Assembly (NCBI GenBank): GCA_035765755.1
Contig: DASTWW010000212.1
Coordinates: 4,929 to 68,928 of the forward strand
Direction of reading: 5' to 3'
DNA from: Nocardioidaceae bacterium
GTDB taxonomy: Bacteria > Actinomycetota > Actinomycetes > Propionibacteriales > Nocardioidaceae
DNA length: 64,000 bases
Shown here in pieces: positions 1-58,012 of this stretch; the first letter of the stretch is position 1, and the number at the start of each line of letters is the position of its first letter. The notes under the pieces are model-generated. The model was not told where the DNA came from. It did no database searches and saw only the letters and a list, made by a program, of their open reading frames with translations. Position numbers and translations under genes: made by a program.

Positions 1-390
1 CTGCCGCGCGACCCCGCGGCCGACGCGCTCAGTGAAGGCCGCGCCGCCACCGACGTGGTGCGCGCCCACCCGGAGTCGCCGCTGGCCTGGGCGACCCTCG
101 CCGAACAGGCGCTCGCCGACGTGGAGGCGGGCTCCGCCGACGAGGTGACCGCCTACGCCTACGCACGGGTTGGCTACCACCGGAGCCTGGACCTGCTGCG
201 CCGCAACGGCTGGAAGGGGCACGGCCCGGTGCCCTGGGAGCACGAGCCCAACCGCGGCTTCCTGCGCGCACTCGCCGCGCTGGCCCAGGCCGCCGAGCGG
301 ATCGGCGAGGCGCCGGAGGCGGAGCGCTGCGCGGACTTCCTGCGCGACTCCAGCCCGGCGGCGTACGACGAGCTGCTGCGCCGGCCCTGA
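1..390 (+). CDS. DUF3151 domain-containing protein (5' end cut by window edge)
   Basis: Frame 1 is open from nt 1 to the TGA at 388-390. The translation (HPESPLAWATLAEQAL...YARVGYHRSLDLLRRNGWKGHGPVPWEHEPNRGFLRAL) matches my memory of the actinobacterial DUF3151 family found near fba/purA. Confidence 0.7.
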   Translation: MPRDPAADALSEGRAATDVVRAHPESPLAWATLAEQALADVEAGSADEVTAYAYARVGYHRSLDLLRRNGWKGHGPVPWEHEPNRGFLRALAALAQAAERIGEAPEAERCADFLRDSSPAAYDELLRRP

Positions 391-401
391 CGCCTGGCCT
401 T

Positions 402-459
402 TACCGACAACGTGTCGCTATCGCGACCCATACGTCGCGGTAGGCATACCAATATCGGT
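402..459 (+). repeat. Intergenic 45-bp-unit repeat family, locus A (1 unit plus 13-nt terminal half-unit)
   Basis: TACCGACAACGTGTCGCTATCGCGACCCATACGTCGCGGTAGGCA followed by TACCAATATCGGT. It shares the unit seen at 19142, 31398 (reverse) and 37457. It contains the CGCGAC-N6-GTCGCG hairpin and starts 11 nt after the upstream stop codon. Confidence 0.85.
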
Positions 460-494
460 TTGTTTGGGGGGACGAGGGGCGGGTACGGCCAGGC

Positions 495-734
495 ATGACC
501 ACGAACGGCGAGCCCGAGGTCGAGACCGACTTCGAGGAGATCAAGCGCGAGGTGGCCGACCAGGAAGAGGCCGACCGCGAGTCGAGCGTCGGCCCGGCCG
601 AGGGTACGACGGAGGTGGGGGTCGAGACCCCGATCGCGGACGTCGACTACCTTCCCGTCGAGCCGGGTCCGGCCGCCTCTGTCGAGGACTACGACCCGCT
701 GGACGTCGACCCCGAGGACGTCGACGACAAGTAG
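495..734 (+). CDS. small, highly acidic hypothetical protein (79 aa, D/E/P-rich)
   Basis: ATG ORF with a GGGG-rich stretch upstream and high GC3. I do not recognise a family. Confidence 0.5.
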   Translation: MTTNGEPEVETDFEEIKREVADQEEADRESSVGPAEGTTEVGVETPIADVDYLPVEPGPAASVEDYDPLDVDPEDVDDK

Positions 735-1014: not shown

Positions 1015-2004
1015 GTGACCCGACAATTCCCGTCGCCGATGGCCGTCCTGGGGATCGACACCGCCGGTGAGCAGTTGTACCGGATGGCCCTCCGCAACTC
1101 CGGGGCGAGCAGTCAGGCGCTGGCGGACAAGCTGGGCTGGCCGCTGGAGCAGGTGGCCTCCGGAGTGGCCAAGCTGGACGCGCTGGGCCTGGTCGACGTG
1201 GACGGCGACGAGGTGCGCACCGTCTCTCCCGATCAGGCCGTCGAGCGGCTGATCGCCACCGAGGCCAGGAGGCTCGCCTCGCTCTCGGCACAGCTGGACT
1301 CGGTGCGCGCCACGCTGCCGTCGCTGATGGCCGAGCACTGGGCGGCGCAGGCCCCGCAGGGCAGGCCGGTGACCGTCGAGGCCGTGGAGGGTGGGGACGT
1401 GTCAGGCCTGATCCGCGCCCTGAGCGCCACCTCGGAGGGCGACCTGATGTGGATCCGCCCCGACCAGTGGCGGTTCGCCGCGGGCCAGGAGATCGACACC
1501 TGGGTCAAGCACCTGGTGGCCTCGGGCCGCAAGTCACGGGCAATCTATCCCGCGCGGGTGTTCGAGGAGGCCCCGGACGTGGTCCGCGGCCGCGCGGAGG
1601 TCGGCGAGCACGTGCGGGTGCTCGCCGAGGTGCCTTCGCGGGTGGCCATCATGGGCACCTCCGCGGTGCTGGTGCCGGAGATGTGGGGCAAGAACACCGG
1701 CCGCCGGCTCGTCGTACGCCAGCCTGCGATCATCGCCGCCTTCACGATGCTCTTCGAGGCGTTGTGGGAGCGGGCGATGGCGATCCCCGGCCTGGACGGG
1801 CCGGTGCAGACCGACGACCGCAGCAACGACCGGCGGCTGCTGATGGACCAGCTGGCGAACGGGGCCAAGGACGAGCAGATCGCGCGCACCCTCGGGATCA
1901 GCCTGCGCACCGTGCGCCGCCGTGTCGCCGACATCCTCGACGAGCTGGGCGTGAACTCCCGGTTCCAAGCTGGGGTGGAGGCGGTACGACGGGGGTGGGT
2001 CTGA
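1015..2004 (+). CDS. LuxR-family transcriptional regulator (TrmB-like N-terminal wHTH plus C-terminal LuxR-type HTH)
   Basis: The C-terminus (DEQIARTLGISLRTVRRRVADILDELGVNSRFQAGVEAVRRGWV) is a typical LuxR/GerE HTH. The N-terminus resembles TrmB-type wHTH domains. Confidence 0.8.
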   Translation: MTRQFPSPMAVLGIDTAGEQLYRMALRNSGASSQALADKLGWPLEQVASGVAKLDALGLVDVDGDEVRTVSPDQAVERLIATEARRLASLSAQLDSVRATLPSLMAEHWAAQAPQGRPVTVEAVEGGDVSGLIRALSATSEGDLMWIRPDQWRFAAGQEIDTWVKHLVASGRKSRAIYPARVFEEAPDVVRGRAEVGEHVRVLAEVPSRVAIMGTSAVLVPEMWGKNTGRRLVVRQPAIIAAFTMLFEALWERAMAIPGLDGPVQTDDRSNDRRLLMDQLANGAKDEQIARTLGISLRTVRRRVADILDELGVNSRFQAGVEAVRRGWV

Positions 2005-2925: not shown

Positions 2926-5543
<2,618 letters not shown>

Positions 5544-5591: not shown

Positions 5592-7033
5592 CGAGCGTCT
5601 CGAAACCCGTCTCGAGACCCATCCCCAACGTCCTCGCCCACCGCTACGCCGCCGCTGACCTGGTCCGGATCTGGACCCCGGAGCACAAGATCGTGCTGGA
5701 GCGGCAGCTGTGGCTGGCCGTGCTGCGGGCCCAGAAGGAGCTGGGCGTCGACGTGCCGGACGGCGTGATCGAGGACTACGAGAAGGTGCTCGACCGGGTC
5801 GACCTGGAGTCGATCGCGGCCCGGGAGCGGGTCACCCGGCACGACGTGAAGGCGCGCATCGAGGAGTTCTGCGCGCTGGCCGGCCACGAGCACATCCACA
5901 AGGGGATGACCTCGCGCGACCTGACCGAGAACGTCGAGCAGCTGCAGGTGCGCTCCTCGCTGCTGCTGGTCCGCGACCGGATCGTGGCAACCTTGGCCCG
6001 GCTGGGCCGGCTGGCCTCGGAGCACCAGGCGCTGGTGATGGCCGGTCGTTCGCACAACGTCGCGGCGCAGGCAACCACCCTCGGCAAGCGGTTCGCCACC
6101 GTCGCCGACGAGATGTTGGTGGCGCTGGAGCGGCTGGAGGACCTGGTCGGGCGGTACCCGCTGCGCGGCATCAAGGGCCCGGTCGGCACCGCCCAGGACA
6201 TGCTCGACCTCCTCGACGGGTCCACCGACCGGTTGGCCGAGCTCGAGCAGCGGGTCGCCTCCCACCTCGGGTTCGAGCGGGTGCTGAGCAGCGTGGGTCA
6301 GGTGTACCCGCGCTCCCTGGACTTCGACGTGGTCTCCGCGCTCGTGCAGGTGGCCGTCGGGCCGTCCAACCTGGCCACCACCATGCGGCTGATGGCCGGC
6401 AACGAGCTGGTCACGGAGGGCTTCAAGGAGGGCCAGGTCGGCTCCTCGGCGATGCCGCACAAGATGAACACCCGTTCCTGTGAACGCGTGAACGGGCTGG
6501 CCGTGGTGCTGCGCGGGTACCTGTCCATGGTCGGCGAGCTGGCCGGCGACCAGTGGAACGAGGGCGACGTCTCCTGCTCGGTGGTACGACGCGTCGCCCT
6601 GCCGGATGCGTTCTTCGCCTGCGACGGGCTGTTCCAGACCTTCCTCACCGTGCTCGACGAGTTCGGCGCGTTCCCCGCGGTGATCCAGCGCGAGCTGGAC
6701 CGCTACCTGCCGTTCCTGGCCACCACCAAGGTGCTGATGGCCGCGGTCCGCAACGGGGTGGGTCGGGAGACCGCGCACGAGGCGATCAAGACCGCCGCGG
6801 TCGGCGTGGCCCTCGACATGCGCCGTGGCGCGGCCGAGAACGACGTGTTCGACCGGCTCGCCGCCGACTCCCGTCTCGGGCTCTCCCGCGCCCAGCTCGA
6901 TGCCCTCGTCGCCGAGCCGATCGCGTTCACCGGTGCCGCGGTGGAGCAGGTGCAGTCCGTCGTACGACGGGTCGACGCGGTCGTCGCGCAGCATCCCGAC
7001 GCCGCGTCGTACGCCCCCGGCGCGATCCTCTAG
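5582..7033 (+). CDS. purB: adenylosuccinate lyase
   Basis: IPNVLAHRYA..., GMTSRDLTENVEQLQ, SSAMPHKMNTRS signature. GTG start at 5582 follows GAGGAG. Confidence 0.95.
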   Translation: MNEASVSKPVSRPIPNVLAHRYAAADLVRIWTPEHKIVLERQLWLAVLRAQKELGVDVPDGVIEDYEKVLDRVDLESIAARERVTRHDVKARIEEFCALAGHEHIHKGMTSRDLTENVEQLQVRSSLLLVRDRIVATLARLGRLASEHQALVMAGRSHNVAAQATTLGKRFATVADEMLVALERLEDLVGRYPLRGIKGPVGTAQDMLDLLDGSTDRLAELEQRVASHLGFERVLSSVGQVYPRSLDFDVVSALVQVAVGPSNLATTMRLMAGNELVTEGFKEGQVGSSAMPHKMNTRSCERVNGLAVVLRGYLSMVGELAGDQWNEGDVSCSVVRRVALPDAFFACDGLFQTFLTVLDEFGAFPAVIQRELDRYLPFLATTKVLMAAVRNGVGRETAHEAIKTAAVGVALDMRRGAAENDVFDRLAADSRLGLSRAQLDALVAEPIAFTGAAVEQVQSVVRRVDAVVAQHPDAASYAPGAIL

Positions 7034-9495
7034 GCACCGAGCCGGCGCGCGAGGTACGGCGCGGTGCGGCCGGTGCCCGAAGCGGCGAGCTCCGCCGGTG
7101 TGCCCTCGACGACCACCCGGCCGCCCTCCGCACCGCCGCCGGGGCCAAGGTCGATCACCCAGTCGGCCCCGGCGACCACGTCCAGGTCGTGCTCCACCAC
7201 GACTACCGTGCTGCCCGCGTCGACCAGCGCGTGCAGCTGGCGGGTGAGCAGCGCGACGTCGGCCGGGTGCAGGCCGGTGGTCGGCTCGTCGAGGACGTAC
7301 AACGTGTGCCCGCGCCGGGTCCGCTGCAGCTCGGAGGCCAGCTTGATGCGCTGCGCCTCGCCGCCGGAGAGCTCGGTGGCCGGCTGGCCCAGGCTCAGGT
7401 AGCCCAGACCGACCGCGTCCAGCGTCTCCAGGCTGCGCGCCACCGGCGGCACGTCGGCGAAGAACTCCCGGGCGTCCTCGACCGTCATCGCCAGCACCTC
7501 GGCAACGTTCTTGTCGTGGTAGCGGACCTCCAGCGTCCCGGGCTCGTAGCGGTCCCCGTGGCACACCGGGCAGGGCGCGTAGGTGCCGGGCAGGAACAGC
7601 AGCTCCACGGCCACGAACCCCTCGCCGCGGCAGTTCTCGCAGCGACCGCCGGCGACGTTGAAGGAGAACCGGCCGGCGTTCCAGCCGCGCTCGCGGGCCA
7701 GGTCGGTGGCCGCGAACAGCTTGCGGACCCCGTCGAACAGGCCGGTGTACGTCGCCAGGTTGGACCGCGGCGTGCGGCCGATCGGCCGCTGGTCGACCTG
7801 CACCAGCCGGTGCACCAGGTCCAGCCCCTGGGTGGGCACTGTTCGGGCCGGTCCGCTGATTGCGTCGTACTCCTCCTCGGCCGGCTCCTCCTCGTCCAGC
7901 ACCGGCGCGGCCGCCGCCCCGAGGTGGTCGCGGACGGTCTCGGCCAGCACCTGGCTGACCAGCGTGGACTTGCCCGAGCCGGAGACGCCGGTCACCACGG
8001 TGAACACGCCGAGCGGCAGCGTCACGTCCAGGTCGCGCAGGTTGTTGCGGGTGATGCCGTGCAGCAACAGCTCGCCGGTGCGGGCGCGGGGCTCGCGGGG
8101 CTTGGGCGGTGCGGTGGGGAAGAGGTACGGCGCGGTGGCGGACCCCTCCACGCCGGCCAGCTCGGCCACCGGCCCGCTGTGCAGCACCCGACCGCCCCGG
8201 GTGCCGGCGCCCGGACCGACCTCGACCAGCCAGTCGGCCCGCCGGATCACGTCCACGTCGTGCTCCACGACCAGCAGCGAGTTGCCGGCCTCGCGGAGCC
8301 GGTCCAGAACGCCCAGCAGCGGCTCGGTGTCCGCCGGGTGCAGTCCGGCGGACGGCTCGTCCAGCACGTAGACGACCCCGAACAGCTGCGACCGCAGTGC
8401 GGTGGCCAGCCGCACCCGCTGCAGCTCGCCGGCCGACAGGGTGGTCGTGGGCCGGGCACTGGCCAGGTAGCCCAGGCCCAGCTCGGTGAGCACCTCCAGC
8501 CGGGCCAGCGCGTCCGGGATGATCGACGCGGCGACGTCCCCACCGCCCTCGAGCGCGTCGGCCAGCACGTCCTCGAGGTCGGTCAGCGGCAGGCCGGTCA
8601 GGTCACTGATGGTGCGGCCGGCGAAGGTGACCGCCAGCGCCTCCGGCCGGAGCCCGGCTCCGCCGCAGCTCGGGCAGGGGCGCGTCTCGACGTACTGCAG
8701 CACCCGGCGGCGCAGGGTGGCGCTCGCGGTGTTCGCCAGCGTGTGCAGCACGTAGCGGCGGGCGCTCTGGTAGGTGCCCTGGTAGGGCCGCTGGATCCGG
8801 TGCGCCTCGCGCTGCGCGTGAACGGTGACGACCGGCTGCTCGTCGGTGAGCAGGATCCAGTCCCGGTCGGCCTGGGGCAGGTCGCGCCACGGCTTGTCCA
8901 CGTCGTACCCGAGGGTGGCCACGATGTCGCGGTAGTTCTTGCCCTGCCAGGCGCCCGGCCACGCGGCGATCGCGCCCTCGCGGATGCTCAGCGACGGATC
9001 CGGCACCAGCGAGTCCTCGGTGACCCGGTGCACCCGGCCCAGGCCGTGACACTCCGGGCAGGCGCCGGCCGGCGTGTTGGGGGAGAACGCGTCGGAGTCC
9101 AGCCGCGGAGCGCCCCGCGGGTAGGTCCCGGCGCGGGACAGCAGCATCCGCAGTGAGTTCGACAGCGTGGTGAGCGTGCCGACGGTGGAGCGGGCGGTCG
9201 GCACGCCGCGGGCCTGCTGGAGCGCCACGGCCGGCGGCAGGCCGGTCACTTCACGGACCCGCGGGGGGCCGACCTGGTGCAGCAGCCGGCGGGCGTAGGG
9301 CGCGACCGACTCCAGGTAGCGCAGCTGCGCCTCGGCGTAGATGGTGCCGAACGCCAGCGACGACTTCCCGGAGCCGGACACGCCGGCCACCGCCACGAAC
9401 GCGTCCCGCGGCACGTCGACGTCGACATCGCGCAGGTTGTGCTCGCGGGCGCCGCGGACGCGGATGAACCCGTCCGGGTCCGGGGCCGGGATCAG
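7030..9495 (-). CDS. UvrA-like ABC-ATPase paralogue (short class, apparently lacking the UvrB-binding domain)
   Basis: Two ABC modules (GVSGSGKSSLAFGTIYAEAQ, GVSGSGKSTLV, LSGGEAQRIKLA, YVLDEPTTGLH) and Zn-finger cysteines. At about 820 aa it is shorter than canonical UvrA at about 950 aa. The conserved N-terminal FIRVRGAREHNLRDVDVDV is encoded at 9415-9471, upstream of the first GTG (9414). I therefore extend the CDS to the in-frame CTG at 9495-9493, which overlaps the MFS stop. Confidence 0.85.
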   Translation of the reverse strand: MIPAPDPDGFIRVRGAREHNLRDVDVDVPRDAFVAVAGVSGSGKSSLAFGTIYAEAQLRYLESVAPYARRLLHQVGPPRVREVTGLPPAVALQQARGVPTARSTVGTLTTLSNSLRMLLSRAGTYPRGAPRLDSDAFSPNTPAGACPECHGLGRVHRVTEDSLVPDPSLSIREGAIAAWPGAWQGKNYRDIVATLGYDVDKPWRDLPQADRDWILLTDEQPVVTVHAQREAHRIQRPYQGTYQSARRYVLHTLANTASATLRRRVLQYVETRPCPSCGGAGLRPEALAVTFAGRTISDLTGLPLTDLEDVLADALEGGGDVAASIIPDALARLEVLTELGLGYLASARPTTTLSAGELQRVRLATALRSQLFGVVYVLDEPSAGLHPADTEPLLGVLDRLREAGNSLLVVEHDVDVIRRADWLVEVGPGAGTRGGRVLHSGPVAELAGVEGSATAPYLFPTAPPKPREPRARTGELLLHGITRNNLRDLDVTLPLGVFTVVTGVSGSGKSTLVSQVLAETVRDHLGAAAAPVLDEEEPAEEEYDAISGPARTVPTQGLDLVHRLVQVDQRPIGRTPRSNLATYTGLFDGVRKLFAATDLARERGWNAGRFSFNVAGGRCENCRGEGFVAVELLFLPGTYAPCPVCHGDRYEPGTLEVRYHDKNVAEVLAMTVEDAREFFADVPPVARSLETLDAVGLGYLSLGQPATELSGGEAQRIKLASELQRTRRGHTLYVLDEPTTGLHPADVALLTRQLHALVDAGSTVVVVEHDLDVVAGADWVIDLGPGGGAEGGRVVVEGTPAELAASGTGRTAPYLARRLGA

Positions 9496-13405: not shown

Positions 13406-13421
13406 CCGAGAGGAGTACGAC

Positions 13422-19245: not shown

Positions 19246-19261
19246 CGACGGGGGAGGTGAC

Positions 19262-28953: not shown

Positions 28954-29091
28954 CGGCCGTCCCTCCGTCGTACTCCTCGACGCTGCCCACGCTCACACCC
29001 CGCGCCGGTCGCGGCAAGGGCCCGCCCTTGTAGATTTGGTTCGCCGCAACACTGCAGCACCTCACCCGTTCGACCCGGAAGCCACGACTCG

Positions 29092-31392
<2,301 letters not shown>

Positions 31393-40481: not shown

Positions 40482-40673
40482 ATGGGGCGCGGCCGTGCGA
40501 AGGCCAAGCAGACCAAGGTTGCCCGTGACCTGAAGTACCGCTCCCACGAGACGGACTTCGGCGCGTTGGCCCAGGAGCTGCATGGCGATCAGAGCTCCGA
40601 CAGTTCCCACGACGATGGTGAGTCGGACGAGTACGACGAGTGGGCGGACTACTCCCAGTCCCGGAGCGACTGA
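40482..40673 (+). CDS. DUF3073 domain-containing protein
   Basis: MGRGRAKAKQTKVARDLKYRS... followed by an acidic tail. This is the conserved small actinobacterial protein usually found next to purM. Confidence 0.8.
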   Translation: MGRGRAKAKQTKVARDLKYRSHETDFGALAQELHGDQSSDSSHDDGESDEYDEWADYSQSRSD

Positions 40674-48000: not shown

Positions 48001-48821
48001 AGCACCACCGCCGACACCGGAGGGTCCACCCACCGGCCGGTGGGCAGGTCGGCGAACCGGGGCGGCAGGTCGACCAGCACGCTTCGGCCGGCCAGCGCCT
48101 CACCGACCGGCCAGGGGTGCTGCGCGTCCAACGGCAGCTCGGCCGGGGCGGCCGGGTGGCCGCCCGTGAACCCCGCGCTGCCGGCGAGTCGGGCGACGCC
48201 GGCCGGCTCGTCGTACAGGTAGACCAGGCTGAACGGGAGCGCGTCCGTCGCCTCGTCCAGCTGCCGGCAGGACGCGGCGACCATCTCGGCCTCACCGAGG
48301 CTGACGCTGGACCGGGCGCCGAGGTCCCGCAGGATGCTCATCCGCCGCCGACCGATCACCTCCTGGGTGTCCTCGGTGACTACGCACAGCATCCCGGCGA
48401 TCTTGCCGCCGTCGTCGAACAGCGGGCTGTAGGAGAACGTGTGGTAGGTCTCCTCGACGTACTCGTTGCGCTCGAGGAACAGCAGCAGCGACTCGTCCCA
48501 GGTGGCGACCCCGGTGGTGAGCACCTTCTCGATGCGCGGGCCGATGTCGTGCCAGATCTCCGACCACACCTTCGAGGCCGGCTTGCCCAGGGCCCACGGA
48601 TACTTCTTGCCAAGCGTGTCGCGGCGGTAGGCGTCGTTGCAGAAGAAGGTCAGCTCCGGGCCCCACGCCATCCACATCGGGAACCGCGACGTGAGCACCA
48701 TGCGTACGACGCTCTGCAGGCTGCGCGGCCAGCTGTCCAGGGGACCGAGCGGTGTTGCGGACCAGTTGACGTCGAGCAGGTCACGACCCACCCCGCCGAT
48801 CCTCTCGAACATCTCCCGCAT
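45069..48821 (-). CDS. multidomain sensor: PAS-GAF-HisKA-HATPase_c-REC-PAS-PP2C(SpoIIE)-HATPase_c_2 (RsbW-like); apparent 1-nt frameshift near the 3' end
   Basis: H-box SHEFRTPL; N/G boxes LLSNALKFT, DTGTGI, GSGIGLAMV. Receiver VLVVDDN...LTDVMMP...GADDYLIKPF. PP2C GGDWYDV...GDVMGRGVQAA...LYTDGLVERRG. RsbW-like ELVTNAVLHG...EHGRGLQIVAALAS. Start ATG 48821 has an AGGAGA RBS. The canonical ending WGTRGTEHGKSVWCVLTAG* is readable only in another frame (45147-45088). Confidence 0.85.
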   Translation of the reverse strand: MREMFERIGGVGRDLLDVNWSATPLGPLDSWPRSLQSVVRMVLTSRFPMWMAWGPELTFFCNDAYRRDTLGKKYPWALGKPASKVWSEIWHDIGPRIEKVLTTGVATWDESLLLFLERNEYVEETYHTFSYSPLFDDGGKIAGMLCVVTEDTQEVIGRRRMSILRDLGARSSVSLGEAEMVAASCRQLDEATDALPFSLVYLYDEPAGVARLAGSAGFTGGHPAAPAELPLDAQHPWPVGEALAGRSVLVDLPPRFADLPTGRWVDPPVSAVVLPLAQSGQASPYGFLVAAVNRYRPLDRGYRDFLDLVAGQLTSVITEGRAFDFERARAETLAELDHAKTDFFTNISHEFRTPLTLLLGPAEDALADPQLPLPDRQRGRVEVILRNGQRLLKLVNTLLDFSRLESGRTEAQFAPIDLAQYTRELASMFDAATERLGLSLTVDCPPLPDPVYVDAELWAKMVLNLLSNALKFTFSGGIEVHLRQVDGQVELAVVDTGTGIPQPEIPHLFERFRRVHGAASRTHEGSGIGLAMVRELAELHGGTATVTSVLGVGSTFCVRVPFGPDHLPCDAVTTGGASSATPSDTEGSVEEALQLSSGPTWAPSWPAQHEGPAPRVLVVDDNADIREYVAGVLADEYHVDTAVDGADALTKAWVLHPDLVLTDVMMPRMDGFELLAALQGDPATVGVPVVMLSARAGEEGMLEGLDRGADDYLIKPFTARELKARVRANLELDRARRIRRQLERGRTLLDQAQRLAQVGSWEIDLRTGAVHVSEEYLRIAGRTAEEVAALRYPELINELVHPDDRAMVQRAFDAGVAGEPITYEARMVHPDGSAVLVSVRAEVLRDEDGEVEAIRGSVQDITERRAAEEALALATANAEAAAREHAIADQLQRSLLPETSFDLEHLEVATFYRAGVEGTQVGGDWYDVIQLGAGRTALVVGDVMGRGVQAAAVMGQLRTATRAYARLGLPPADVLEYLDGIVRDLDENQIVTCLYAVFDPADRVLRIANAGHLPPILVSADGASRVLTGAADPPLGTGPFTLAQRDVRLEAGGMAVLYTDGLVERRGEDLDRGITTLARLAGGLEGATSGMPERLVDALLPEGPDDDVAILIARVDPTEENPILIQRLEATETAAHQARSIVGRHLADHDLPERLAEDTVLATSELVTNAVLHGAGPLELRLRTRDTEVMVEVLDRATYQPRRLRPTPDDEHGRGLQIVAALASDGAPGAPSTASPCGACSRPAERPPSQ

Positions 48822-49897: not shown

Positions 49898-52180
49898 ATG
49901 TCGGGTATCGGGTCATCGCGGAAGTACACGAGCGCCGCCCGGGCCGGCGTACTGCTCAGGATCGGCACGCTGCTCGCCATGGTCGCGGGCCTGTTGGTCA
50001 GTACGGCGGCCGGGGCGGACGCTGCCACCGGTTTGGACGTGTACGTCGGCTACATGGACACGCACACGCGGGCCACCAGCACTCAGCAGCCGAACCCCTG
50101 GCCGTACACCGACTCGTCCCGGTACGTGGGCACGCCCTGCCCGAACTACGGCAGCACCAACGCGTGCTGGGACGCCAGCGCGCTGATGTTGAAGAACAAC
50201 GGCGACACCGATGTGACCGGCATCCACGTGGTGGTCATGATGGGGACCCACAAGTACGACCTCTGGGGTCCCGACTTGAGGGTGGCAGCACACGACTATC
50301 TGGTGCTGACGGAGACCGGGTCGTCCCCGAACTCGGAGAACTTCGACGGCTCGGACTTCTCGCCGAACGCCTACAACGGCGGCCTGGAGGCCTCCTGCAT
50401 CGACTCCGGAGCACGTCCGACTGTGAGCGTGACCATCGGCGGCGCCACCACGTCGTACTCCGACACCGGGCAGGTGCTGAACGCCGGTGGGGTGGACGGC
50501 GGGCACTGCGTGGACGGAGTGTTCGTGCCCGGTCGGATGGACGAGTCTCATCCCTGGGTGCTGATCGGCACTGCTCCGGCCGGTGGTGGTGGTGGCGGCA
50601 CGGCGGCAACCGCGCCTGCTGCACCGACGAACCTGAAGGCCACCGCGGGCGACGGCTCGGTGAAGCTGACCTGGACGGCGCCCGCCGACGGCGGGTCGGC
50701 GATCACCGGCTACCGGGTGCTGCGAGCCACGACGCGTGGCGGGGAGTCCATCCTCACCACCGTGAGCTCGACCAGCTTCACCGACACCGGCGTGACGAAC
50801 GGGACGACGTACTACTACACGGTCGTCGCGGTGAACGGCATCGGGCCGTCGCCGCAGTCGAACGAGGCCTCGGCGACCCCGCAGCCCGCGACTCCGGCGC
50901 CGACCCCGCCTTCCGCGCCGACGAACCTGAAGGCGATGGCGGGAGACGGGTCGGTGACGCTGAGCTGGACCGCGCCAAGCGGCGGCTCAGCTCCAACCAG
51001 CTACAGCATCTACCGGGGTGCGACGGCGGGCGGCGAGTCGAGTACCCCGGTCAAGGCGGTGACGTCGACGAGCTGGACAGACACGGGACTCACCAACGGA
51101 ACGCCGTACTTCTACACGGTCGTGGCGGTGAACGACATAGGGCCGTCGCCGCAGTCGAACGAAGCCTCGGCGACGCCGCAAACCACCACGCCACCGTCTG
51201 GTGGCTCTGGTGGAGGTTCTGGCGGTGGCTCCGGGCCGACCCCGGACCCCGGGCCGTCACCTGTTCCGCAGCCTTCGCCGGCGACCGCGCCCTCGGCCCC
51301 CGCAAGGCTGGCCGCCTCCGTCGCGAACGGGGCGATCCGGCTCACCTGGTCCTCGCCGGCCTCGGATGGCGGCGCGCCGGTCACCGGCTACCAGCTCTAC
51401 AGAGGTACGACGGGGGGAGGCGAAGCCCCGACCCCGGTGATCACCGGGATCGTGACCACGACGTTCACCGACACCGACGTGCGCCCCGGGACGACGTACT
51501 TCTACACAGTGGCTGCGGTCAACGCGGTGGGCACCTCTGCCCCGTCCGCCGAGGCCTCCGCCCAGGTGAGCTCACCGAACAGGCGGGGGATCTGTGCTGG
51601 GCTGGCCCGCTGCCACGTGACGGCTCGCGCCGACGTGAACGGTGACGGCCACCGCGACGTGATCGCGATGGCCCGGCGGGGCGGCCGCCTCGGGTCGACG
51701 GGCGCGGTGATCCTGCGGGTCAAGACAGGCCCGCACCACGTCGTACAGACTCGTCGGCGCCTGGAGAACTGGTCCCGGTCCCCGTGGGTCGGTGTCGCCC
51801 GGCTCGACCGGCGGCCCGGCAAGGAGATCGTGCTCGGCCGGCTCTCCGGAGCGGCGGCGACCTTCTACCAGTCGATCACGTGGCGGCGCGGCCACCTGGT
51901 GCTGCTCGACGCTCCGGGCCGCGGCCGGTGGTGGCCGCTCGACTTCTCCGCCACCCTGCAGGCGGGCTGGCAGCGACGAGCGGCCGACCCCGTCGGCACT
52001 ATTCGGCAGCGCATCGCCACGCACCCGAGCAGCGACGGGACCTACCGCGGCAGGATCAAGATCTACCGCTGGACCAGATCCGGATGGCACCTGGTCCGCA
52101 CCAGGACGAACGGCTCCGTGCCGCTGCAACGGGCGCAGCGCTGGGGCGGCTTCCATGTGCCCGGGCTGCCGCGGTTCTGA
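49898..52180 (+). CDS. secreted protein: unknown N-terminal domain, three fibronectin type III domains, and a C-terminal FG-GAP/VCBS-like region
   Basis: Signal peptide; three FN3 units (PTNLKATAGDGSVKLTWTAP...YYYTVVAVNGIGPSPQSNEASATP and two more); DVNGDGHRDV motif near the C-terminus. Confidence 0.8.
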   Translation: MSGIGSSRKYTSAARAGVLLRIGTLLAMVAGLLVSTAAGADAATGLDVYVGYMDTHTRATSTQQPNPWPYTDSSRYVGTPCPNYGSTNACWDASALMLKNNGDTDVTGIHVVVMMGTHKYDLWGPDLRVAAHDYLVLTETGSSPNSENFDGSDFSPNAYNGGLEASCIDSGARPTVSVTIGGATTSYSDTGQVLNAGGVDGGHCVDGVFVPGRMDESHPWVLIGTAPAGGGGGGTAATAPAAPTNLKATAGDGSVKLTWTAPADGGSAITGYRVLRATTRGGESILTTVSSTSFTDTGVTNGTTYYYTVVAVNGIGPSPQSNEASATPQPATPAPTPPSAPTNLKAMAGDGSVTLSWTAPSGGSAPTSYSIYRGATAGGESSTPVKAVTSTSWTDTGLTNGTPYFYTVVAVNDIGPSPQSNEASATPQTTTPPSGGSGGGSGGGSGPTPDPGPSPVPQPSPATAPSAPARLAASVANGAIRLTWSSPASDGGAPVTGYQLYRGTTGGGEAPTPVITGIVTTTFTDTDVRPGTTYFYTVAAVNAVGTSAPSAEASAQVSSPNRRGICAGLARCHVTARADVNGDGHRDVIAMARRGGRLGSTGAVILRVKTGPHHVVQTRRRLENWSRSPWVGVARLDRRPGKEIVLGRLSGAAATFYQSITWRRGHLVLLDAPGRGRWWPLDFSATLQAGWQRRAADPVGTIRQRIATHPSSDGTYRGRIKIYRWTRSGWHLVRTRTNGSVPLQRAQRWGGFHVPGLPRF

Positions 52181-53406: not shown

Positions 53407-54639
53407 ATGGAGACCCAGGTGCGGGTGTACGCCTACCGCTGGGTGGTCCTCGCCGCCTTCATGGCGGTCAACCTGACGATCCAGGTGCTCTGGATCAGCT
53501 ACGCCCCGGTGACGACAGCCGCCTCGAGCTACTACAGCGTCGGTGACGTCGGCGTCGGCGCGCTGGCCATGACGTTCATGATCGTCTACCTGCCGCTGTC
53601 GATCCCCGCGTCGTACCTCATCGACCGGCGCGGCCTGCGGATCGCCTCCGGTTTCGGCGCCCTGCTCGCGGGCGTGGCCGGCGTCGCGCGTGGCTTGGCG
53701 GGGGACCGCTACGGGCTGGTGCTGGCCGCCACGGTGGGCGCGGCGATCGCCCAGCCGTTCCTGCTCAACGCGTGGACCACGGTGTCCGTGCGCTGGTTCC
53801 CGCGGTCGCAGCGCGCCACCGCCGTCGGCCTGGTGACGCTGGCGAACCTGGTCGGTGCCGGGATCGGGATGGCGCTCACGCCGGTGCTAGCCGGGTCGAT
53901 GACGCTGGCCGCGATCCAGCTGATGTACGGTGCGGCGGCGCTCGTCGCAGGGCTGGCGTTCGTGCTCGTCGTACGGGACCGACCGCCCAGTCCTCCGGAC
54001 GCAGGCGCGGCGCAGGACCGCGCGCTGGTGCTCGACGGCCTGCGCCATGCCGTGCGGGTGCGACCGTTCCTGGTCTTCCTCGCGCTGGTGTTCGTGGGGA
54101 TGGGGGTCTTCAACGGGGTGTCCACCTGGGTGGCCGAGATCCTCCGGCCGCGCGGGTTCAGCTCCACCGACGCCGGGACCATGGGCGCTCTGCTGCTGCT
54201 CGGCGGTGTCCTGGGCGCGGTGGTGCTGGCCGCGATGTCGGACCGGTCGGGGCGTCGGATCCCGTTCCTGGCGCTGGCGTTCGGGGCCGCCGCGCCGGCG
54301 TTGCTGCTGCTGGCGGTGGCCCGTACGACGGCGGTGCTGCTCGTCGCGGCCTTCGTGCTCGGCTTCTTCCTGGTCAGCGCCATGCCGATCGGCATGCAGT
54401 ACGCCGCGGAGATCACCGCGCCCACGCCCGAGGGCACCTCGAACGGCGTGGTGCAGCTGGTCGGGCAGGCCTCGGTGGTGTTCGTGTACCTGATGGCGCT
54501 GACCCCCACCTCCGGCGGGTCGTTCCTGCCCTCGCTGGCCGCGCTCGCCGTGCTGCTGCTGGCCGGCGGTGTCGTGGCACTCCGCCTCCCCGAGCCGGTG
54601 CCTACTGGTCGATCTGCCCAGGTGGCCGGGGTGCGTTGA
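53407..54639 (+). CDS. MFS transporter (12-TMS)
   Basis: 410 aa, polytopic, with an MFS loop motif around DRRGLRIASG. Confidence 0.85.
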   Translation: METQVRVYAYRWVVLAAFMAVNLTIQVLWISYAPVTTAASSYYSVGDVGVGALAMTFMIVYLPLSIPASYLIDRRGLRIASGFGALLAGVAGVARGLAGDRYGLVLAATVGAAIAQPFLLNAWTTVSVRWFPRSQRATAVGLVTLANLVGAGIGMALTPVLAGSMTLAAIQLMYGAAALVAGLAFVLVVRDRPPSPPDAGAAQDRALVLDGLRHAVRVRPFLVFLALVFVGMGVFNGVSTWVAEILRPRGFSSTDAGTMGALLLLGGVLGAVVLAAMSDRSGRRIPFLALAFGAAAPALLLLAVARTTAVLLVAAFVLGFFLVSAMPIGMQYAAEITAPTPEGTSNGVVQLVGQASVVFVYLMALTPTSGGSFLPSLAALAVLLLAGGVVALRLPEPVPTGRSAQVAGVR

Positions 54640-55234: not shown

Positions 55235-55262
55235 CTGAGATTTCTACCCTGCGCGCGGGGCC

Positions 55263-56531
55263 TCACGGGCGCGGCCCTCCGAGCCAGGCCAGGGCAGCCA
55301 CCACCAGTGCCGTGGTCCCGGTGTCGAGAGTCGGCTGCAGCACCGGCGCGAACTGCGCCGAGTGGTTGACTGGGATGTCCTGGGACAGCCGACCGGCGGC
55401 CTCGGCCTGCTGATAGCGGTCCGGGTCGATGCCGCCGATGCCCCAATAGGTGTACGGCGCGCTGAGCGCGGTCGGGATGTCGCTGAAGTCCTCGCTGGCC
55501 GTCTGCAGCGGCAGCTGCTCGGCCTGGTCGCCGAAGTGGTCGGCGAACGCGGCGGCGACCCGGTCGGTGACGTCGGCGTCGTTGTCGGTGACCGGGAACT
55601 GGTCGAAGAGCTCGAACTCCGGTTGCTTCGGTGACCGCGAGGCGGTGCACTCCGCGGTCACGATGCGCTCGATGGCGTTCAGGATCGCGGCTCGGGTCTG
55701 TTCGTCGTACGTGCGGATGTTCAGCAGGATAGTGGCGGCGTCGGGGATGACGTTGCTCTTGGTGCCTGCCTGGATGCTGCCCACCGTGAGCACCGCCGGC
55801 TCGCCGGGTCGGGTCTCGCGGGAGATCACCGTCTGCAGCCGGACCACGATCATCGCCGCGAGCACGACCGGGTCGACCGAGGCCTGGGGCATCGACCCGT
55901 GGGCACCGCGTCCGTGCACCGTGATCCGCATGCTGTCGGCGGCCGACAGCGCCGGGCCGGGACGAGTTGCGACGCGGCCGGCCGGCAACGCCAGCACGTG
56001 CTGGCACAGGGCGACGTCGACCTTGCCGACCAGCTTCGCCAAGCCGTCCTCGACCATCCCCCGTGCTCCATCGGACACCTCCTCCGCAGGCTGGAACACC
56101 GCCACCGCGGTGCCTTGCCAGTGCGCCGTGGATCCGGCCAGCAGGTCCACGGCCCCGAGCAGACAGGTGACGTGGACGTCGTGGCCGCACGCGTGCATCA
56201 CCGGCACTTCGCTGCCCTCGGAGGTGGTTGCGGTCACCGTGCTGGCGTACGGCAGCCCGGTCGCCTCCCGGACCGGCAGCGCGTCCATGTCGGCTCGCAG
56301 CAGCACCACCGGACCTTCGCCGTTGCGCAGCACCGCGACGACGCCGGTGCCGCCCACGCCGTCGTGCACCTCGCAGCCGGCGGCTCGCAGGCGGTCGGCG
56401 ACGTTGCCGGCGGTACGCCGCTCCTGGTGGGACAGCTCCGGATGGGCATGCAGATCGCGGTAGAAGTCCTCCTGCCAGCCGCGAACGCGCTCCAAACCGT
56501 CCAACACCAGTGAGGCGGACGAAGCTGTCAT
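55263..56531 (-). CDS. M20D-family amidohydrolase (hippurate hydrolase / aminoacylase-like)
   Basis: DLHAHPELSHQE, LRADMDALP, MHACGHD, FQPAEE motifs. ATG 56531 after GAGGAG. Confidence 0.85.
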   Translation of the reverse strand: MTASSASLVLDGLERVRGWQEDFYRDLHAHPELSHQERRTAGNVADRLRAAGCEVHDGVGGTGVVAVLRNGEGPVVLLRADMDALPVREATGLPYASTVTATTSEGSEVPVMHACGHDVHVTCLLGAVDLLAGSTAHWQGTAVAVFQPAEEVSDGARGMVEDGLAKLVGKVDVALCQHVLALPAGRVATRPGPALSAADSMRITVHGRGAHGSMPQASVDPVVLAAMIVVRLQTVISRETRPGEPAVLTVGSIQAGTKSNVIPDAATILLNIRTYDEQTRAAILNAIERIVTAECTASRSPKQPEFELFDQFPVTDNDADVTDRVAAAFADHFGDQAEQLPLQTASEDFSDIPTALSAPYTYWGIGGIDPDRYQQAEAAGRLSQDIPVNHSAQFAPVLQPTLDTGTTALVVAALAWLGGPRP

Positions 56532-56683
56532 GGTCGCTCCTCGGTCGGCGGTCGGCGCCCGGCCCCAACGACAGGGACGGACCTTTTCACCCTGCTCCGG
56601 ACACGGCGTCGCCACAAGGGGCACCGTCCACACCCGCGGTTGGGACGTTGTCCCCTGTCGGCCAGAGCAGCCGTTCGCCTAGC

Positions 56684-58012
56684 GTGCCCCGCGTGCGCCC
56701 CGGACCGGCTTCGCAGGTGCGCCGCGGTCACTCCGCGCTGAAAGCGGTGGACGCGGTCCTGTTCGTGTACGCCGGACTCTCCGCCGTCTGGCTGGCGTAC
56801 CTCGTGCTGGTCGAGAGCCTGCAGCTGAACTGGCGCCTGCTCTTCCTCGTCGTGTTCTGGCTGCTGGCCGCCTACCTGGTGCTGCCCCGGATCCACCGGG
56901 CGTTGACCTACATCTACGTGCCGAACTACTTCATCGGCCGCACCCGGACCAGCGACGGCCTGCTGGGCGACCCGGTCAACCTGGCCCTGCTCGGCGACGA
57001 GGCACAGGTCCACGCCGCCATGACTGCGGCGGGCTGGGTGCGCGCCGACGACGTGACACCGGCCAGCAGCCTCTGCATCGTCCGCACCACGGTGTCGCGG
57101 CGCAGCTACCCGGAGGCGCCGGTGAGCCCGCTGCACCTGTTCGAGCGGCCGCAGGACTTCGCCTACCAGCAGGAGGTCAGGGGCAATCCGTCGCAGCGGC
57201 ACCATGTCCGGTTCTGGCGCTGCCCCGAGGGCTGGCGCCTGCCCGGCGGGTACGCCGTGGACTGGGTCGCCGCGGGCACCTACGACCGCAGCGTCGGATT
57301 GTCGCTGATGACGTTCCAGGTCACCCATCGCATCGCCAAGGACATCGACGTCGAGCGCGACCACATCGTCGCCAGCGTGACGAAGGCCGATCCGGAGGTG
57401 GGAGTGCACCAGATCCGGCACTTCGCGAGCGGCTACCACGCGCGCAACGGGGGCGGGGACGAGATGGTCACCGACGGGCACCTTCCCGTGCTGGACCTGC
57501 GCGCCGTCCCGGCGTCCACCCGGGCCGGGGAGGCGAGACCGCTCACCGACAGCCGGGACCGGCGTCCCGCCTCCGTCACCTTCAGCGCGTCCGTCGCCTG
57601 CCTGCGCGGCCTGCTGGGCGTGGCGCTGGGCTGCCTGATCCTCGTGGACCCGAACCTGCTCTCGGACGTGCCCCACGACGCCGGGCTCAGCGCGGCGTTC
57701 GTCACGGTCACGGCCGTCGGCTTCCTGGTCGTCGCGGCGATCGACCTCGGGCTGGGGGTGGCCACCTTCCAGGGCCGCAACTGGGCCCGGCTGCTGCTGA
57801 TGCTGGACTGCGCCGCGTCGATCCTGGTTGCCTTCGCGGCCACCACCGGCGGAGGTCCGCTGCCTTCGCTGGGCTCCGGGCTTCCGCATGTCGCGCTGGG
57901 CATCCTGGTGCTGCTCGCGCTGACCAGTCCGCGGGCCCGGCGCTATGCGACCCGGGGTCGTCCCGTCGTACTCCTCGCCCCCGCGGCCGAGCCCGAGGTC
58001 AGGGCCCGGTGA
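56684..58012 (+). CDS. membrane protein with LssY C-terminal-like domain
   Basis: N-terminal TMs, then DPVNLALLGDEAQVHAAMTAAGW...HHVRFW...GTYDRSVGL (LssY_C-like from memory), then C-terminal TMs. Start GTG 56684 or 56693. Confidence 0.6.
   Translation: MPRVRPGPASQVRRGHSALKAVDAVLFVYAGLSAVWLAYLVLVESLQLNWRLLFLVVFWLLAAYLVLPRIHRALTYIYVPNYFIGRTRTSDGLLGDPVNLALLGDEAQVHAAMTAAGWVRADDVTPASSLCIVRTTVSRRSYPEAPVSPLHLFERPQDFAYQQEVRGNPSQRHHVRFWRCPEGWRLPGGYAVDWVAAGTYDRSVGLSLMTFQVTHRIAKDIDVERDHIVASVTKADPEVGVHQIRHFASGYHARNGGGDEMVTDGHLPVLDLRAVPASTRAGEARPLTDSRDRRPASVTFSASVACLRGLLGVALGCLILVDPNLLSDVPHDAGLSAAFVTVTAVGFLVVAAIDLGLGVATFQGRNWARLLLMLDCAASILVAFAATTGGGPLPSLGSGLPHVALGILVLLALTSPRARRYATRGRPVVLLAPAAEPEVRAR

Follow-up and report, generated by a model that had tools for sequence, protein, structure and literature searches.

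A short asymmetric DNA-level word over-represented throughout a Nocardioidaceae genome, tentatively read as a self-DNA tag

The genome of the soil Nocardioidaceae bacterium under study (G000) carries a word, GTACGNCG, on which selection or drive acts at the double-stranded DNA level, and composition, codon usage, amino-acid usage and a repeat element each fail to produce it. A search of the window (the whole 64-kb stretch of DNA that was analysed) for GTACGACG returned 48 copies between positions 363 and 57971, 23 on the plus and 25 on the minus strand, exactly as a preliminary description of this DNA had counted them; its figure of about 230 GTAC tetramers is corrected here to 215. Dinucleotide-preserving shuffles of the window predicted 2.60 copies (sd 1.55, largest 7) and none of 100 shuffles reached 48. 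The over-representation extends to the whole genome (87.5% complete), as that description implied: under a first-order Markov model GTACGACG is the top-ranked 8-mer by z, with 2115 copies against 130 expected, and it is carried by either strand, in all reading frames and in intergenic DNA. This corresponds to one copy per 1.7 kb, or one per 0.65 kb for the word family. No published description of the GTACGACG word was found in a literature search.

Of the 48 window sites, by our own gene calls, 21 lie in ordinary frames (16 Tyr-Asp and 5 Ser-Tyr), in line with the earlier estimate of about half, 18 lie in rare-codon frames (GTA CGA CG 5, xGT ACG ACG 3, CGT CGT AC 4 and GTC GTA C 6) and 9 fall outside the gene calls. 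Both palindromes reported previously are present (CCGTCGTACGACGG at 6957, GTCGTACGAC at 13243). The sites, located by GTACGACG search, are listed below with observations from the relatives used for site-by-site comparison (G001, G002, G003 and G007); "earlier" marks a frame or position given in the preliminary description.

363..370, plus: Tyr-Asp in frame (xxG TAC GAC G)
604..611, plus: outside gene calls; earlier GGT ACG ACG
1710..1717, minus: GTC GTA C, rare Val codon; reads CGTCGTAC on the plus strand
1984..1991, plus: GTA CGA CG, Val-Arg-Arg, two rare codons; G001 GTACGCCG, G007 GTCCGGCG
3960..3967, plus: Tyr-Asp in frame; retained in G002, G001 and G007
4886..4893, minus: GTC GTA C frame
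5477..5484, plus: Tyr-Asp in frame; leading G gained, since relatives read CTAC...
6584..6591, plus: GTA CGA CG; gained by synonymous change to rare codons, since G001, G003 and G007 read GTS CGN CG
6958..6965, minus: GTC GTA frame, left half of palindrome CCGTCGTACGACGG (6957-6970); retained in G002, G001, G003 and G007
6962..6969, plus: GTA CGA CG, right half of CCGTCGTACGACGG; N changed to A in this genus (G003 and G007 have GTACGTCG)
7005..7012, minus: xCG TCG TAC, Ser-Tyr; N variant in G001 and G007
7863..7870, minus: Tyr-Asp in frame, UvrA-like gene (minus-strand)
8901..8908, minus: Tyr-Asp in frame, minus-strand gene
9933..9940, plus: Ser-Tyr frame, MFS gene (minus-strand)
13003..13010, plus: Tyr-Asp in frame; G gained, since G001 reads CTACGACG
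13242..13249, minus: Ser-Tyr frame, within GTCGTACGAC (13243-13252)
13415..13422, plus: intergenic, directly upstream of AMP-binding gene start
13655..13662, minus: GTC GTA C frame
13957..13964, plus: xGT ACG ACG frame
16486..16493, plus: outside gene calls
17018..17025, minus: xGT ACG ACG frame, minus-strand gene
17887..17894, minus: Tyr-Asp in frame, minus-strand gene
19243..19250, plus: intergenic, abuts end of 45-bp hairpin repeat array (...TCG, then GTACGACGG)
27556..27563, minus: Tyr-Asp in frame, minus-strand gene
28966..28973, minus: 5' part of over-long purL ORF call, frame uncertain; earlier an RBS-to-start spacer
29426..29433, minus: Ser-Tyr frame, purL; retained in G002, G001 and G007
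30856..30863, minus: CGT CGT AC frame, purL
31629..31636, minus: GTA CGA CG, minus-strand gene
31911..31918, plus: CGT CGT AC frame, minus-strand gene
32757..32764, plus: CGT CGT AC frame, minus-strand gene
33270..33277, minus: Tyr-Asp in frame, CLC channel gene
33393..33400, minus: Tyr-Asp in frame, CLC channel gene
37212..37219, plus: Tyr-Asp in frame
39670..39677, plus: Tyr-Asp in frame, purM
40631..40638, plus: outside gene calls
43784..43791, plus: GTA CGA CG; G002 and G001 have GTACGTCG
44785..44792, plus: Tyr-Asp in frame
46040..46047, minus: Tyr-Asp in frame, sensor kinase gene
48209..48216, minus: Tyr-Asp in frame, sensor kinase gene
48704..48711, plus: GTC GTA C frame, sensor kinase gene (minus-strand)
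50451..50458, minus: outside gene calls
51405..51412, plus: outside gene calls; earlier GGT ACG ACG
51739..51746, minus: outside gene calls; earlier GTC GTA
53609..53616, minus: Ser-Tyr frame
53967..53974, minus: GTC GTA C frame
54323..54330, plus: xGT ACG ACG frame
55703..55710, minus: Tyr-Asp in frame, minus-strand gene
57964..57971, minus: outside gene calls; earlier GTC GTA

Across G000, 26 copies of GTACGACG adjoin a repeat array.

The genes of G000 contain 1626 copies of GTACGACG, compared with 499.5 +/- 16.8 (maximum 541) in 30 codon-preserving synonymous shuffles, the null proposed earlier, and 240 in codon-order shuffles. Over all frames these two types of shuffle fall short by 3- to 7-fold, and in the rare frames by 20- to 70-fold. 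Both GTA (2.2% of Val codons) and CGA (5.5% of Arg codons) are rare in G000, as had been supposed; the four rare-codon frames nevertheless hold 677 copies against 24.0 expected, and on this measure GTACGACG is the unique top 8-mer. All six frames are enriched, as is true intergenic DNA (80 copies in 987 short gaps against 5.5-8.5 expected, 10- to 15-fold), which agrees with the proposal of a DNA-level word independent of frame and orientation. Ordinary Tyr-Asp or Ser-Tyr codon pairs account for about 58% of the genic copies, and the peptides encoded by the word are enriched 1.4-1.9x. A weak but pervasive directional force makes GTACGNCG at synonymous sites via rare codons and in spacers, and the same force moves amino-acid usage towards peptides able to carry it.

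The extended consensus first put forward, rGGTACGACGGrg, is refined here to the asymmetric GTACGNCG followed by a weak GR tail, with flanks that are one-sided around GTAC; the form preferred in this genus is GTACGACGGR. In every frame class except the ordinary W2 and R1, G follows the word in 0.49-0.73 of sites, with A or G as the second base in 0.70-0.87 (0.81 outside genes), and beyond this two-base tail the flanks of the G000 sites are not conserved and hold no signal. When one-off neighbours were compared, co-enrichment was limited to position-5 variants of the word, and at synonymous sites G at position 0 is coupled with CG at positions 6-7 (G fraction 0.67 vs 0.32). The word is one unit of 8-10 bp. 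Depleted neighbours include GTACGAGG (61 vs 218), TTACGACG (9 vs 37) and GGACGACG (about 0.5x); the depletion of GTACGATG is not word-specific because that of CTACGATG is equal. No per-contig strand skew of GTACGACG was observed in G000 (chi2 79.5, 101 contigs/df, p 0.94), so that the earlier rejection of a strand-skewed Chi or KOPS word holds, and in a complete relative 200 kb of sequence carry 44 and 42 words on the two strands. Spacing between G000 sites is near-exponential, i.e. random (CV 1.09), and overlapping palindromes number 67 against 101 predicted under independence, palindromic doublets not being favoured. This indicates that terminator-like inverted pairs are absent.

Comparison between relatives, a check that the preliminary description proposed, shows that sites are retained at synonymous positions. 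A 92%-identical relative had 171 of 214 sites identical, compared with 55% of matched generic 8-mers (p 4e-14); of the G001 words 16 of 17 are kept, against a generic 8-mer identity of 32%, and of the aligned G007 words 5 of 5, against 15%. Once present, a GTACGNCG copy lasts roughly tenfold longer than an ordinary 8-mer. Outgroup comparison revealed words gained via synonymous changes to rare codons, and codon-aligned orthologues upheld the rare-frame sites. Mobile islands are without the word, and the longest word-free stretch in G000 carries two integrases and an IS110 transposase.

The word is not private to its source organism: within the class Actinomycetia it occurs patchily in many families, whereas elsewhere in the phylum the excess is weak or absent. 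Among cultured Nocardioides, N. islandensis and N. aquiterrae are enriched. Out of 151 Actinomycetia genomes, 36 contain GTACGACG at least 4x as often as its control and 73 have no excess, the enrichment being a continuum from 1x to 20x and not present or absent. This continuum would fit a universal reader of varying strength equally well. Because G077 (same family, GC 72.1%) and G120 (GC 69.2%) are at baseline in the same pipeline, the word is not a by-product of GC content. Preference at N varies between families, forming dialects, and G014 additionally uses GTACTNCG.

The most likely mechanism, which we propose tentatively and by analogy, is that the word may be a self-DNA tag akin to the uptake sequences of Pasteurellaceae (USS) and Neisseriaceae (DUS). 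These too (PMC1939737; PMC2817400) are short asymmetric words that recur every 1-2 kb or so, unskewed between the strands, in spacers as well as in genes of any frame, that roughly double the peptides they encode, accumulate and are retained at sites, are missing from recently acquired DNA and have lineage variants (DUS dialects). For the peptides, Findlay and Redfield 2009 (PMC2817400) report "approximately doubled", compared with 1.4-1.9x here. The present motif differs in being shorter (8-10 bp) with one free position, in lacking inverted pairs that serve as terminators and in its graded occurrence over many families. To our knowledge, known uptake sequences are confined to one family each, and the spread of the present word is far wider since its core recurs in many families of the class. 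ComEC and TadE uptake genes were found in G000; however, ComEC is present in 147 of the 151 genomes, including non-enriched G077 and G120, and TadE in 5 of 5, so that the competence genes tested do not track the word. We know of natural transformation in few actinobacteria and in no Nocardioidaceae. Biased repair, or weak selection for a binding site of any kind, would likewise predict word-free islands, retention and gain.

The word could instead be a site, kept by weak, lineage-varying selection, that binds or controls a conserved DNA-processing protein of the chromosome, which we regard as possible but doubtful; candidate readers include a topoisomerase, a nucleoid-organising protein and, if the word acts like Chi, the AdnAB end-resection motor. 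Distant families use the same core GTACG-CG, site retention is strong, enrichment is graded and proteins typically recognise asymmetric motifs of this kind, 8-10 bp long with a single free position, yet no candidate protein was found, and the lack of excess in 73 of 151 genomes, a same-family, same-GC genome among them, would be odd for a core function. Chi of RecBCD/AddAB is likewise an over-represented, frame-independent asymmetric octamer with wide taxonomic conservation and variants, whereas the present word has no orientation bias or strand/replichore skew, and the Chi and KOPS words characterised so far are all skewed. We know of no Chi for the actinobacterial AdnAB enzyme. RecBCD was rejected as the reader because RecC, whose presence does not follow enrichment, was found in just 11 of the 36 genomes whose ratio is at least 4, and in none of six f30 and seven f21 genomes.

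We consider it unlikely that biased repair or gene conversion of the very-short-patch style, with a putative mismatch enzyme turning near-cognate sequences into a functionless word, is responsible. Gains at synonymous sites do run against codon preference, spacers and genes are equally enriched, GTACGAGG, TTACGACG and GGACGACG are depleted and the patchy distribution is compatible with a mobile gene; a comparable directional DNA-level bias creates the Dcm/Vsr words of E. coli regardless of coding and depletes some neighbours. However, the GTACGATG depletion is not specific, an asymmetric specificity of 8-10 bp is unusual for very-short-patch-type mismatch enzymes, and Vsr was not found in G000 (87.5% complete) nor in 5 of 5 enriched g19 genomes but was found in non-enriched G077 and G120. 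The C5, N4/N6 and N6 methyltransferase families searched likewise gave no match in G000 at this completeness, and the sole methyltransferase of its sister G002 lies within a 2.5 kb insertion missing from G000; C5 methyltransferase, like Vsr, was found in non-enriched controls and not in enriched relatives. Neither Vsr nor these three families track the word, which leaves the methylation- or Vsr-driven option raised earlier unsupported. The asymmetry of the word is at odds with the HIP1-like option suggested alongside: HIP1 (GCGATCGC, cyanobacteria) is also a hyper-abundant, lineage-wide DNA-level octamer of genes and spacers, but it is a palindrome linked to methyltransferases, whereas here palindromic doublets are not favoured and the three families are unmatched in G000.

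A protein-free mutational context effect, either a cold spot or a hot spot creating the word, is very improbable: although a word-like family occurs in many high-GC lineages and, by sequence reasoning, GTAC is the only NTAN tetramer that is GC-rich and stop-free on both strands, such an effect does not account for coupling across 7 bp or for the absence of excess in same-family genomes of equal or higher GC, 80-94% retention is not expected from a hot spot, and by our estimate a 3- to 19-fold lower loss rate alone cannot yield rare-frame enrichment of 30- to 70-fold. It is hardly credible that the pattern is an artefact produced by codon or amino-acid usage, miscalled genes or a dispersed repeat, despite the majority of ordinary codon pairs among genic copies, the crude gene finder used here and the array beside 26 copies, given the shortfall of both shuffles, the intergenic enrichment, the unconserved flanks, the rare frames upheld by orthologues and the control genomes without excess in the same pipeline.

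If the word is a self-DNA tag, a putative sequence-specific protein of a DNA-exchange pathway would favour word-bearing DNA, at uptake or in the recombination that comes after it, and word-gaining alleles would therefore be over-transmitted through homologous recombination, a molecular drive opposed by coding constraints. The specificity determinant may be gained, lost or retuned between lineages, which would explain why the distribution is patchy and graded and why preferences at N differ. In all, GTACGACG looks like a genome-wide recognition tag with a putative reader.

The preliminary description had counted 23 plus-strand and 25 minus-strand copies of the octamer GTACGACG (hereafter the word) in the window. 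All 48 were recovered, each at exactly the coordinate it was said to occupy, against 2.60 expected (sd 1.55, largest 7) in 100 dinucleotide-preserving shuffles. By frame they divide into 16 Tyr-Asp and 5 Ser-Tyr copies (the ordinary frames), 18 copies in frames that use rare codons and 9 outside gene calls. The window (G000:C212:4929-68928) belongs to an assembly of 3.68 Mb in 295 contigs with 71.2% GC (G000), a MAG from an uncultured organism that is 87.5% complete with 5% contamination. The best matches of its PurM are Nocardioidaceae MAGs (82% identical), with Nocardioides species at 74-78%, and by this protein sequence the organism is placed among uncultured Nocardioidaceae. Public runs containing the window DNA are soil and rhizosphere metagenomes and one biogas-fermenter metagenome (24 runs listed). 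The enrichment proposed from the window extends to the whole genome, where k-mer statistics gave 2115 copies (1052 + 1063). Under a first-order Markov model the word is the top 8-mer by z (130 expected, 16.3x, z 174), the next unrelated 8-mer reaching z 97, and against the third-order expectation of 336 copies it is still enriched 6.3x.

To examine how the word sits in coding sequence we called genes with a home-made, crude GC3-based ORF finder, which returned 2606 ORFs covering 75.6% of G000 and whose non-genic class includes missed genes. The codons regarded as rare in the preliminary description are rare in this genome, GTA being 2.2% of Val codons and CGA and CGT 5.5% and 6.7% of Arg codons; GGT makes up 9.8% of Gly codons. 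Synonymous shuffles, which preserve each protein and the codon usage of each gene, produced 499.5 +/- 16.8 copies (max 541, n=30) and codon-order shuffling 240 +/- 15.6, compared with 1626 copies seen in genes. All six coding frames are enriched.

Copies of the word in G000 genes by coding frame, observed and expected
GTA CGA CG: 160 observed, 2.3 expected
xGT ACG ACG: 127 observed, 5.7 expected
CGT CGT AC: 116 observed, 4.0 expected
GTC GTA C: 274 observed, 13.2 expected
TCG TAC (Ser-Tyr): 358 observed, 82 expected
TAC GAC G (Tyr-Asp): 591 observed, 392 expected

The four least expected frames together hold 677 copies versus 24.0 expected, the largest such excess among all 8-mers, and the runners-up are the word's own shifts and its position-5 variants. 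Across genomes the word reaches up to ~20x its control (the reversed word), and 30-70x in rare-codon frames. Per kb, genes of G000 contain 0.58 copies and short spacers 0.75. In the 987 short gaps between neighbouring predicted genes (107 kb), a test free of the problem of missed genes, we found 80 words where Markov models of the gaps predict 5.5-8.5. Proteins are affected as well, since peptides able to carry the word occur in excess when compared with proteins of shuffled residue order (YD[GAVDE] 1.86x, [SPTA]SY 1.86x, VRR 1.5x and RRT 1.37x); 160 of the 935 VRR tripeptides are spelled GTA CGA CGN. An artefact of composition or codon usage is ruled out by the failure of both kinds of shuffle to reproduce the counts and by two control genomes that have no excess. 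G077, which is complete, belongs to the same family and has 72.1% GC, contains 12 words in 200 kb, none of them outside predicted genes and 11 in ordinary frames (7 vs 8.4 and 4 vs 3.0 expected), and this stretch contains neither a rare-frame excess nor any other outstanding word. G120, from family f40 and with 69.2% GC, has 11 words in 200 kb. Taken together, G077 and G120 decisively contradict an effect of composition.

When the 24 one-letter variants of the word were compared, frame-independent excess was confined to changes at position 5, so the enriched unit is the family GTACGNCG, with position 5 (N) free. Among 22,037 GTAC half-sites, GTAC is followed by GACG 2114 times, GGCG 1333 times, GTCG 1108 times and GCCG 1107 times. 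The remaining variants are at or under expectation, as for GTACGAGG (61 vs 218) and TTACGACG (9 vs 37); GTACGATG is strongly depleted, but CTACGATG is depleted to the same degree, so this depletion is not particular to the word. At synonymous sites the two end letters are coupled across 7 bp: TAC is preceded by G in 67% of cases when GNCG follows and in 32% otherwise. In rare-codon frames and outside genes, position +8 is G at a pooled frequency of 0.61 (0.49-0.73 by rare frame), and position +9 is A or G at 0.70-0.87 in rare-codon frames and 0.81 outside genes. The Tyr-Asp and Ser-Tyr classes show a conspicuous bias only towards G at +9. These biases give the extended form GTACGACGGR, and 754 of the 2115 copies have the GR tail. 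Beyond +9 the flanks show codon-phase signal only, which indicates that no longer repeat contains the word; a dispersed element of the REP or MITE type is excluded by these unconserved flanks and because only 26 copies adjoin a repeat array. An iterated palindrome of the HIP1 type is likewise rejected, as GTACGNCG is asymmetric and its flanks are one-sided: GTAC with CGNC upstream and GNCG downstream occurs 414 times versus 727 if the sides were independent, and the 12-mer palindrome 67 times versus 101. The word is an asymmetric, protein-sized recognition word of 8-10 bp with one free position.

Some intergenic copies lie at the ends of arrays of a 45-bp tandem repeat.

Arrays of the 45-bp tandem repeat family
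19142-19250 of the window
31398-31455 of the window
further arrays genome-wide, for example on G000 contigs C26, C53, C35, C19 and C30

Each unit consists of a hairpin (CGCGAC-N6-GTCGCG) followed by GTAG and, further on, by CGACACGATGTCGGTA, and the family comprises ~150 units in G000 (51 internal junctions and 99 array ends). Internal junctions read GGTACG[T/G/C]CTAC, which is 7 of the 8 letters of the word family. Out of the 99 array ends, 33 are GTAC and 26 of these are exact GTACGACG, compared with ~10% of GTAC half-sites genome-wide, and 18 of the 80 intergenic words are located at array ends. The arrays often adjoin the 3' ends of genes. The word may be an insertion target or boundary of the arrays, or one protein may bind both.

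The absence of strand bias that had been noted in the window was confirmed on the assembly: per-contig strand counts are not over-dispersed across 101 contigs, each carrying 8 sites or more (chi2 79.5, 101 df, p 0.94). In 200 kb of G014, a replichore-sized stretch of a complete genome of family f3, 44 words lie on one strand and 42 on the other, with gene orientation at 78 versus 46. The word family occurs once per 649 bp in G000 with near-exponential gaps between sites (CV 1.09), the only short-range excess being that of overlapping palindromes. There are also word-free stretches of 6-11 kb, far longer than chance allows (per-gap P 1e-4 to 4e-8) and slightly lower in GC. In the longest family-free stretch (G000 C88:1-11050, 11 kb) lie genes for two tyrosine recombinases, a transposase of the IS110 family and a permease resembling FtsX, and the stretch was probably acquired recently as a mobile island; another word-free stretch contains a glycosyltransferase and unknown genes.

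Conservation of the word was examined at orthologous sites. From ~450 kb of G002, a sister genome of the same genus, 354 kb aligned at 91.9% identity and included 214 of the 2115 sites. In this comparison, of a kind that the preliminary description had suggested as a check, the word is conserved beyond its surroundings: 171 of the 214 sites are identical in G002, compared with 55.3% of generic 8-mers matched by frame class (binomial p 4e-14), and the excess is seen in each class, rare frames and non-genic DNA included. Of the 43 changed sites, 14 differ solely at N. A three-way alignment of 34.8 kb of the window with G002 and a further relative, G001, contains 15 sites common to all three, 16 common to G000 and G002 only and 1 private to G001. 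Hence 16 of 17 G001 words are retained in the G000/G002 lineage, for a generic 8-mer identity of 32%, and all five aligned words of G007, from another genus (76% identity; generic 8-mers 15%), are also words in G000. Outgroup-polarised gains in the G000 lineage include GTS CGN CG to GTA CGA CG at 6584, CTAC to GTAC at 5477 and 13003, and N to A at 6962 and 7005. By rough estimate the loss rate is 3- to 19-fold below background and gain is raised; this combination points to a weak directional force and not to a mutational cold spot.

To determine how widely the word is shared, we tallied the ratio of word to control word in 151 Actinomycetia genomes, which are related and so not independent, the reversed word being a rough control only. 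The tallies include the unpublished genomes G039, G044 and G051, none of which is the sole basis of a claim.

Ratio of word to control word in Actinomycetia
Ratio of at least 4: 36 of 151 genomes
Ratio of 2-4: 42 of 151 genomes
Ratio below 2: 73 of 151 genomes
Family f30: 5.9-19.8
Family f1 (that of G000): 1.8-13.5
Family f34: 7.8-12
Family f21: 4.6-9.6
Genus g41 (7-9 Mb genomes): 1.5-4.2
Family f40 (6 Mb genomes): 1.0-1.3

Within f1 the genera g18 and g19 contrast in enrichment, and families f20, f13, f17, f25 and f36 are likewise split. Five named Nocardioides genomes contain 1146-2007 words for 168-240 control words; Nocardioides islandensis KCTC 19275 and N. aquiterrae JCM 11813 are enriched species in culture. 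In other classes of the phylum GTACGNCG is found at 0.1-3.7x, against 6.3x in G000; this survey includes the unpublished genomes G175, G191, G219, G238 and G256, again without any individual claim on one of them alone. In samples of 40-200 kb from each genome, frame-independent excess was also observed in G165 and G095 (f30), G014 (f3), G049 (f34), G091 (f21) and G143 (f18), and weakly in G093 (f27; 10 vs 1.7). The preferred letter at N differs between these genomes: C in G049, G091 and G143, C and G in G014, where GTACTNCG is used too, and A only in the genus of G000, A being about equal with G in G165. In G120 (G120:C1:1000001-1200000, L069-L078) another word, ACTCGACG/CGTCGAGT, ranks highest for frame-independent excess, with 21 copies vs 2.5 in its rare frames, and may be a weaker word used by a different lineage.

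Two actinophages, Microbacterium phage Moleficent (4 words in 50 kb, GC 59.8%) and Streptomyces phage LazerLemon (3 words in 50 kb), show no excess of the word, the enrichment of their hosts not being established by name. The 14-mer palindrome is present in only 64 IMG/VR stretches, of unassigned host, with 0.09 further words/kb (0.12/kb at GC of at least 66%); G000 alone has 13 copies. These are only hints that viral DNA is without the word. No Nocardioides plasmid replicon was found among the best 25 matches. Two repeats were observed in viral sequences. The viral contig IMGVR_UViG_3300021400_000715 (37.6 kb; L220, L229, L259 and L283), one measured locus of which, L259, has 32% GC, contains the GC-rich 14-mer palindrome CCGTCGTACGACGG at least six times; these copies resemble a repeat private to the contig, with no relation to the word of actinobacteria. 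LazerLemon (MH229865.1, L174) has 37 copies of the octamer GTGTAAAC/GTTTACAC in 50 kb versus 0.2 expected; this phage word is strongly repeated and could be a repeat of the promoter or operator type.

The analysis shows a word that a directional force, blind to coding, builds into double-stranded DNA and holds there. Mobile DNA does not carry it, and from one lineage to another it is turned on, turned off or retuned. To our knowledge no uptake sequence is spread as widely as this word is across the class. Like the uptake sequences (USS and DUS), it is hyper-abundant on both strands equally, in genes and in spacers, and it is shared by lineages with dialects and missing from foreign DNA. In all these respects it behaves like the described Pasteurellaceae and Neisseriaceae uptake sequences (PMC1939737, PMC2817400). 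On this likeness we rank first, tentatively, a molecular drive linked to DNA exchange, which would maintain the word. The competence genes suggested as a place to look are present (ComEC in 147 of 151 genomes, TadE in 5 of 5) whether or not a genome is enriched, and being near-universal they are uninformative as discriminators.

Weak selection for the site of a conserved DNA-processing protein would account for the wide sharing of the core, but the word is absent from genomes of the same family and has no strand skew, and we consider this candidate rather improbable. A biased repair resembling VSP, carried out by a candidate sequence-specific enzyme, is a little more doubtful still, being weakened by the negative results for Vsr and methyltransferases. 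The Vsr-like endonuclease that the preliminary description had proposed to search for (PF03852) was not found in G000 (87.5% complete), G002 or G134, nor in any of five genomes of the enriched genus g19, and the C5 methyltransferase PF00145 was not found in G000 (at the same completeness), G002 or G134. Canonical VSP repair, with a word driven by Vsr and Dcm, is rejected since Vsr and C5 methyltransferase were not found in G000, G002 or G134 and are both present in the non-enriched G077 and G120. As for the orphan methyltransferase also proposed, G000 gave no match to PF01555, PF02384 or PF00145, so that, for three Pfam families in an 87.5% complete genome, a methyltransferase-linked word is not supported. 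The single PF01555 gene of G002 (an N4/N6 DNA methyltransferase) lies inside a 2.5 kb insertion (L068:142-2621, G002:C133) that is absent at the matching locus G000 C84:29918-29968, and tblastn found no copy of the enzyme elsewhere in G000. A motif-regex for methyltransferases in six-frame ORFs gave 51 matches and was too unspecific to use. A RAYT/IS200-type (Y1) transposase (PF01797), considered as a protein that might read the word or the neighbouring hairpin arrays, was found in 0 of 5 genomes.

RecBCD-Chi is excluded by the lack of strand skew in the 101 contigs and in 200 kb of G014, and because the presence of RecC does not follow enrichment: RecC (PF04257) occurs in 52 of the 151 genomes but in only 11 of the 36 with a ratio of at least 4, and Vsr in 10 of these 36, tallies in which G122 and the 79-85 genomes without listed matches are counted as lacking the family. 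RecC was found in none of the 6 f30 and 7 f21 genomes and is present in the non-enriched families f40, f41 and f2. An architecture-imparting sequence of the KOPS type is dismissed for the same absence of strand polarity.

The exchange-linked reading may be stated more broadly: many Actinomycetia families could share one genome-wide self-DNA word, GTACGNCG, with dialects, read by a sequence-specific component of DNA exchange or recombination, a proposal that we put forward with some reserve. USS, DUS, Chi and KOPS have each brought to light a chromosome-reading machine, and we know of no hyper-abundant word of known meaning in the Actinomycetia, a class that includes Streptomyces, Nocardioides and mycobacteria. 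Our literature search returned no description of the word, its complement, its variants or degenerate forms, and nothing on such a word in actinobacteria; Tables S1 and S2 of Davenport and Tummler 2010 (PMC2843746), which list abundant octamers per genome, may bear on this novelty. The word costs the cell rare codons and a shifted protein composition, it is long retained, and it is on or off between sister genera. The question of its reader is directly testable by comparing an enriched cultured Nocardioides with a genus of the same family without the word. In these genomes the word separates native from recently acquired DNA, and it may matter for transforming and engineering these bacteria. 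If the proposal is true, the word would be the phylum's first signal of an uptake-sequence-like or Chi-like kind, and it could define which soil actinobacteria swap chromosomal DNA.
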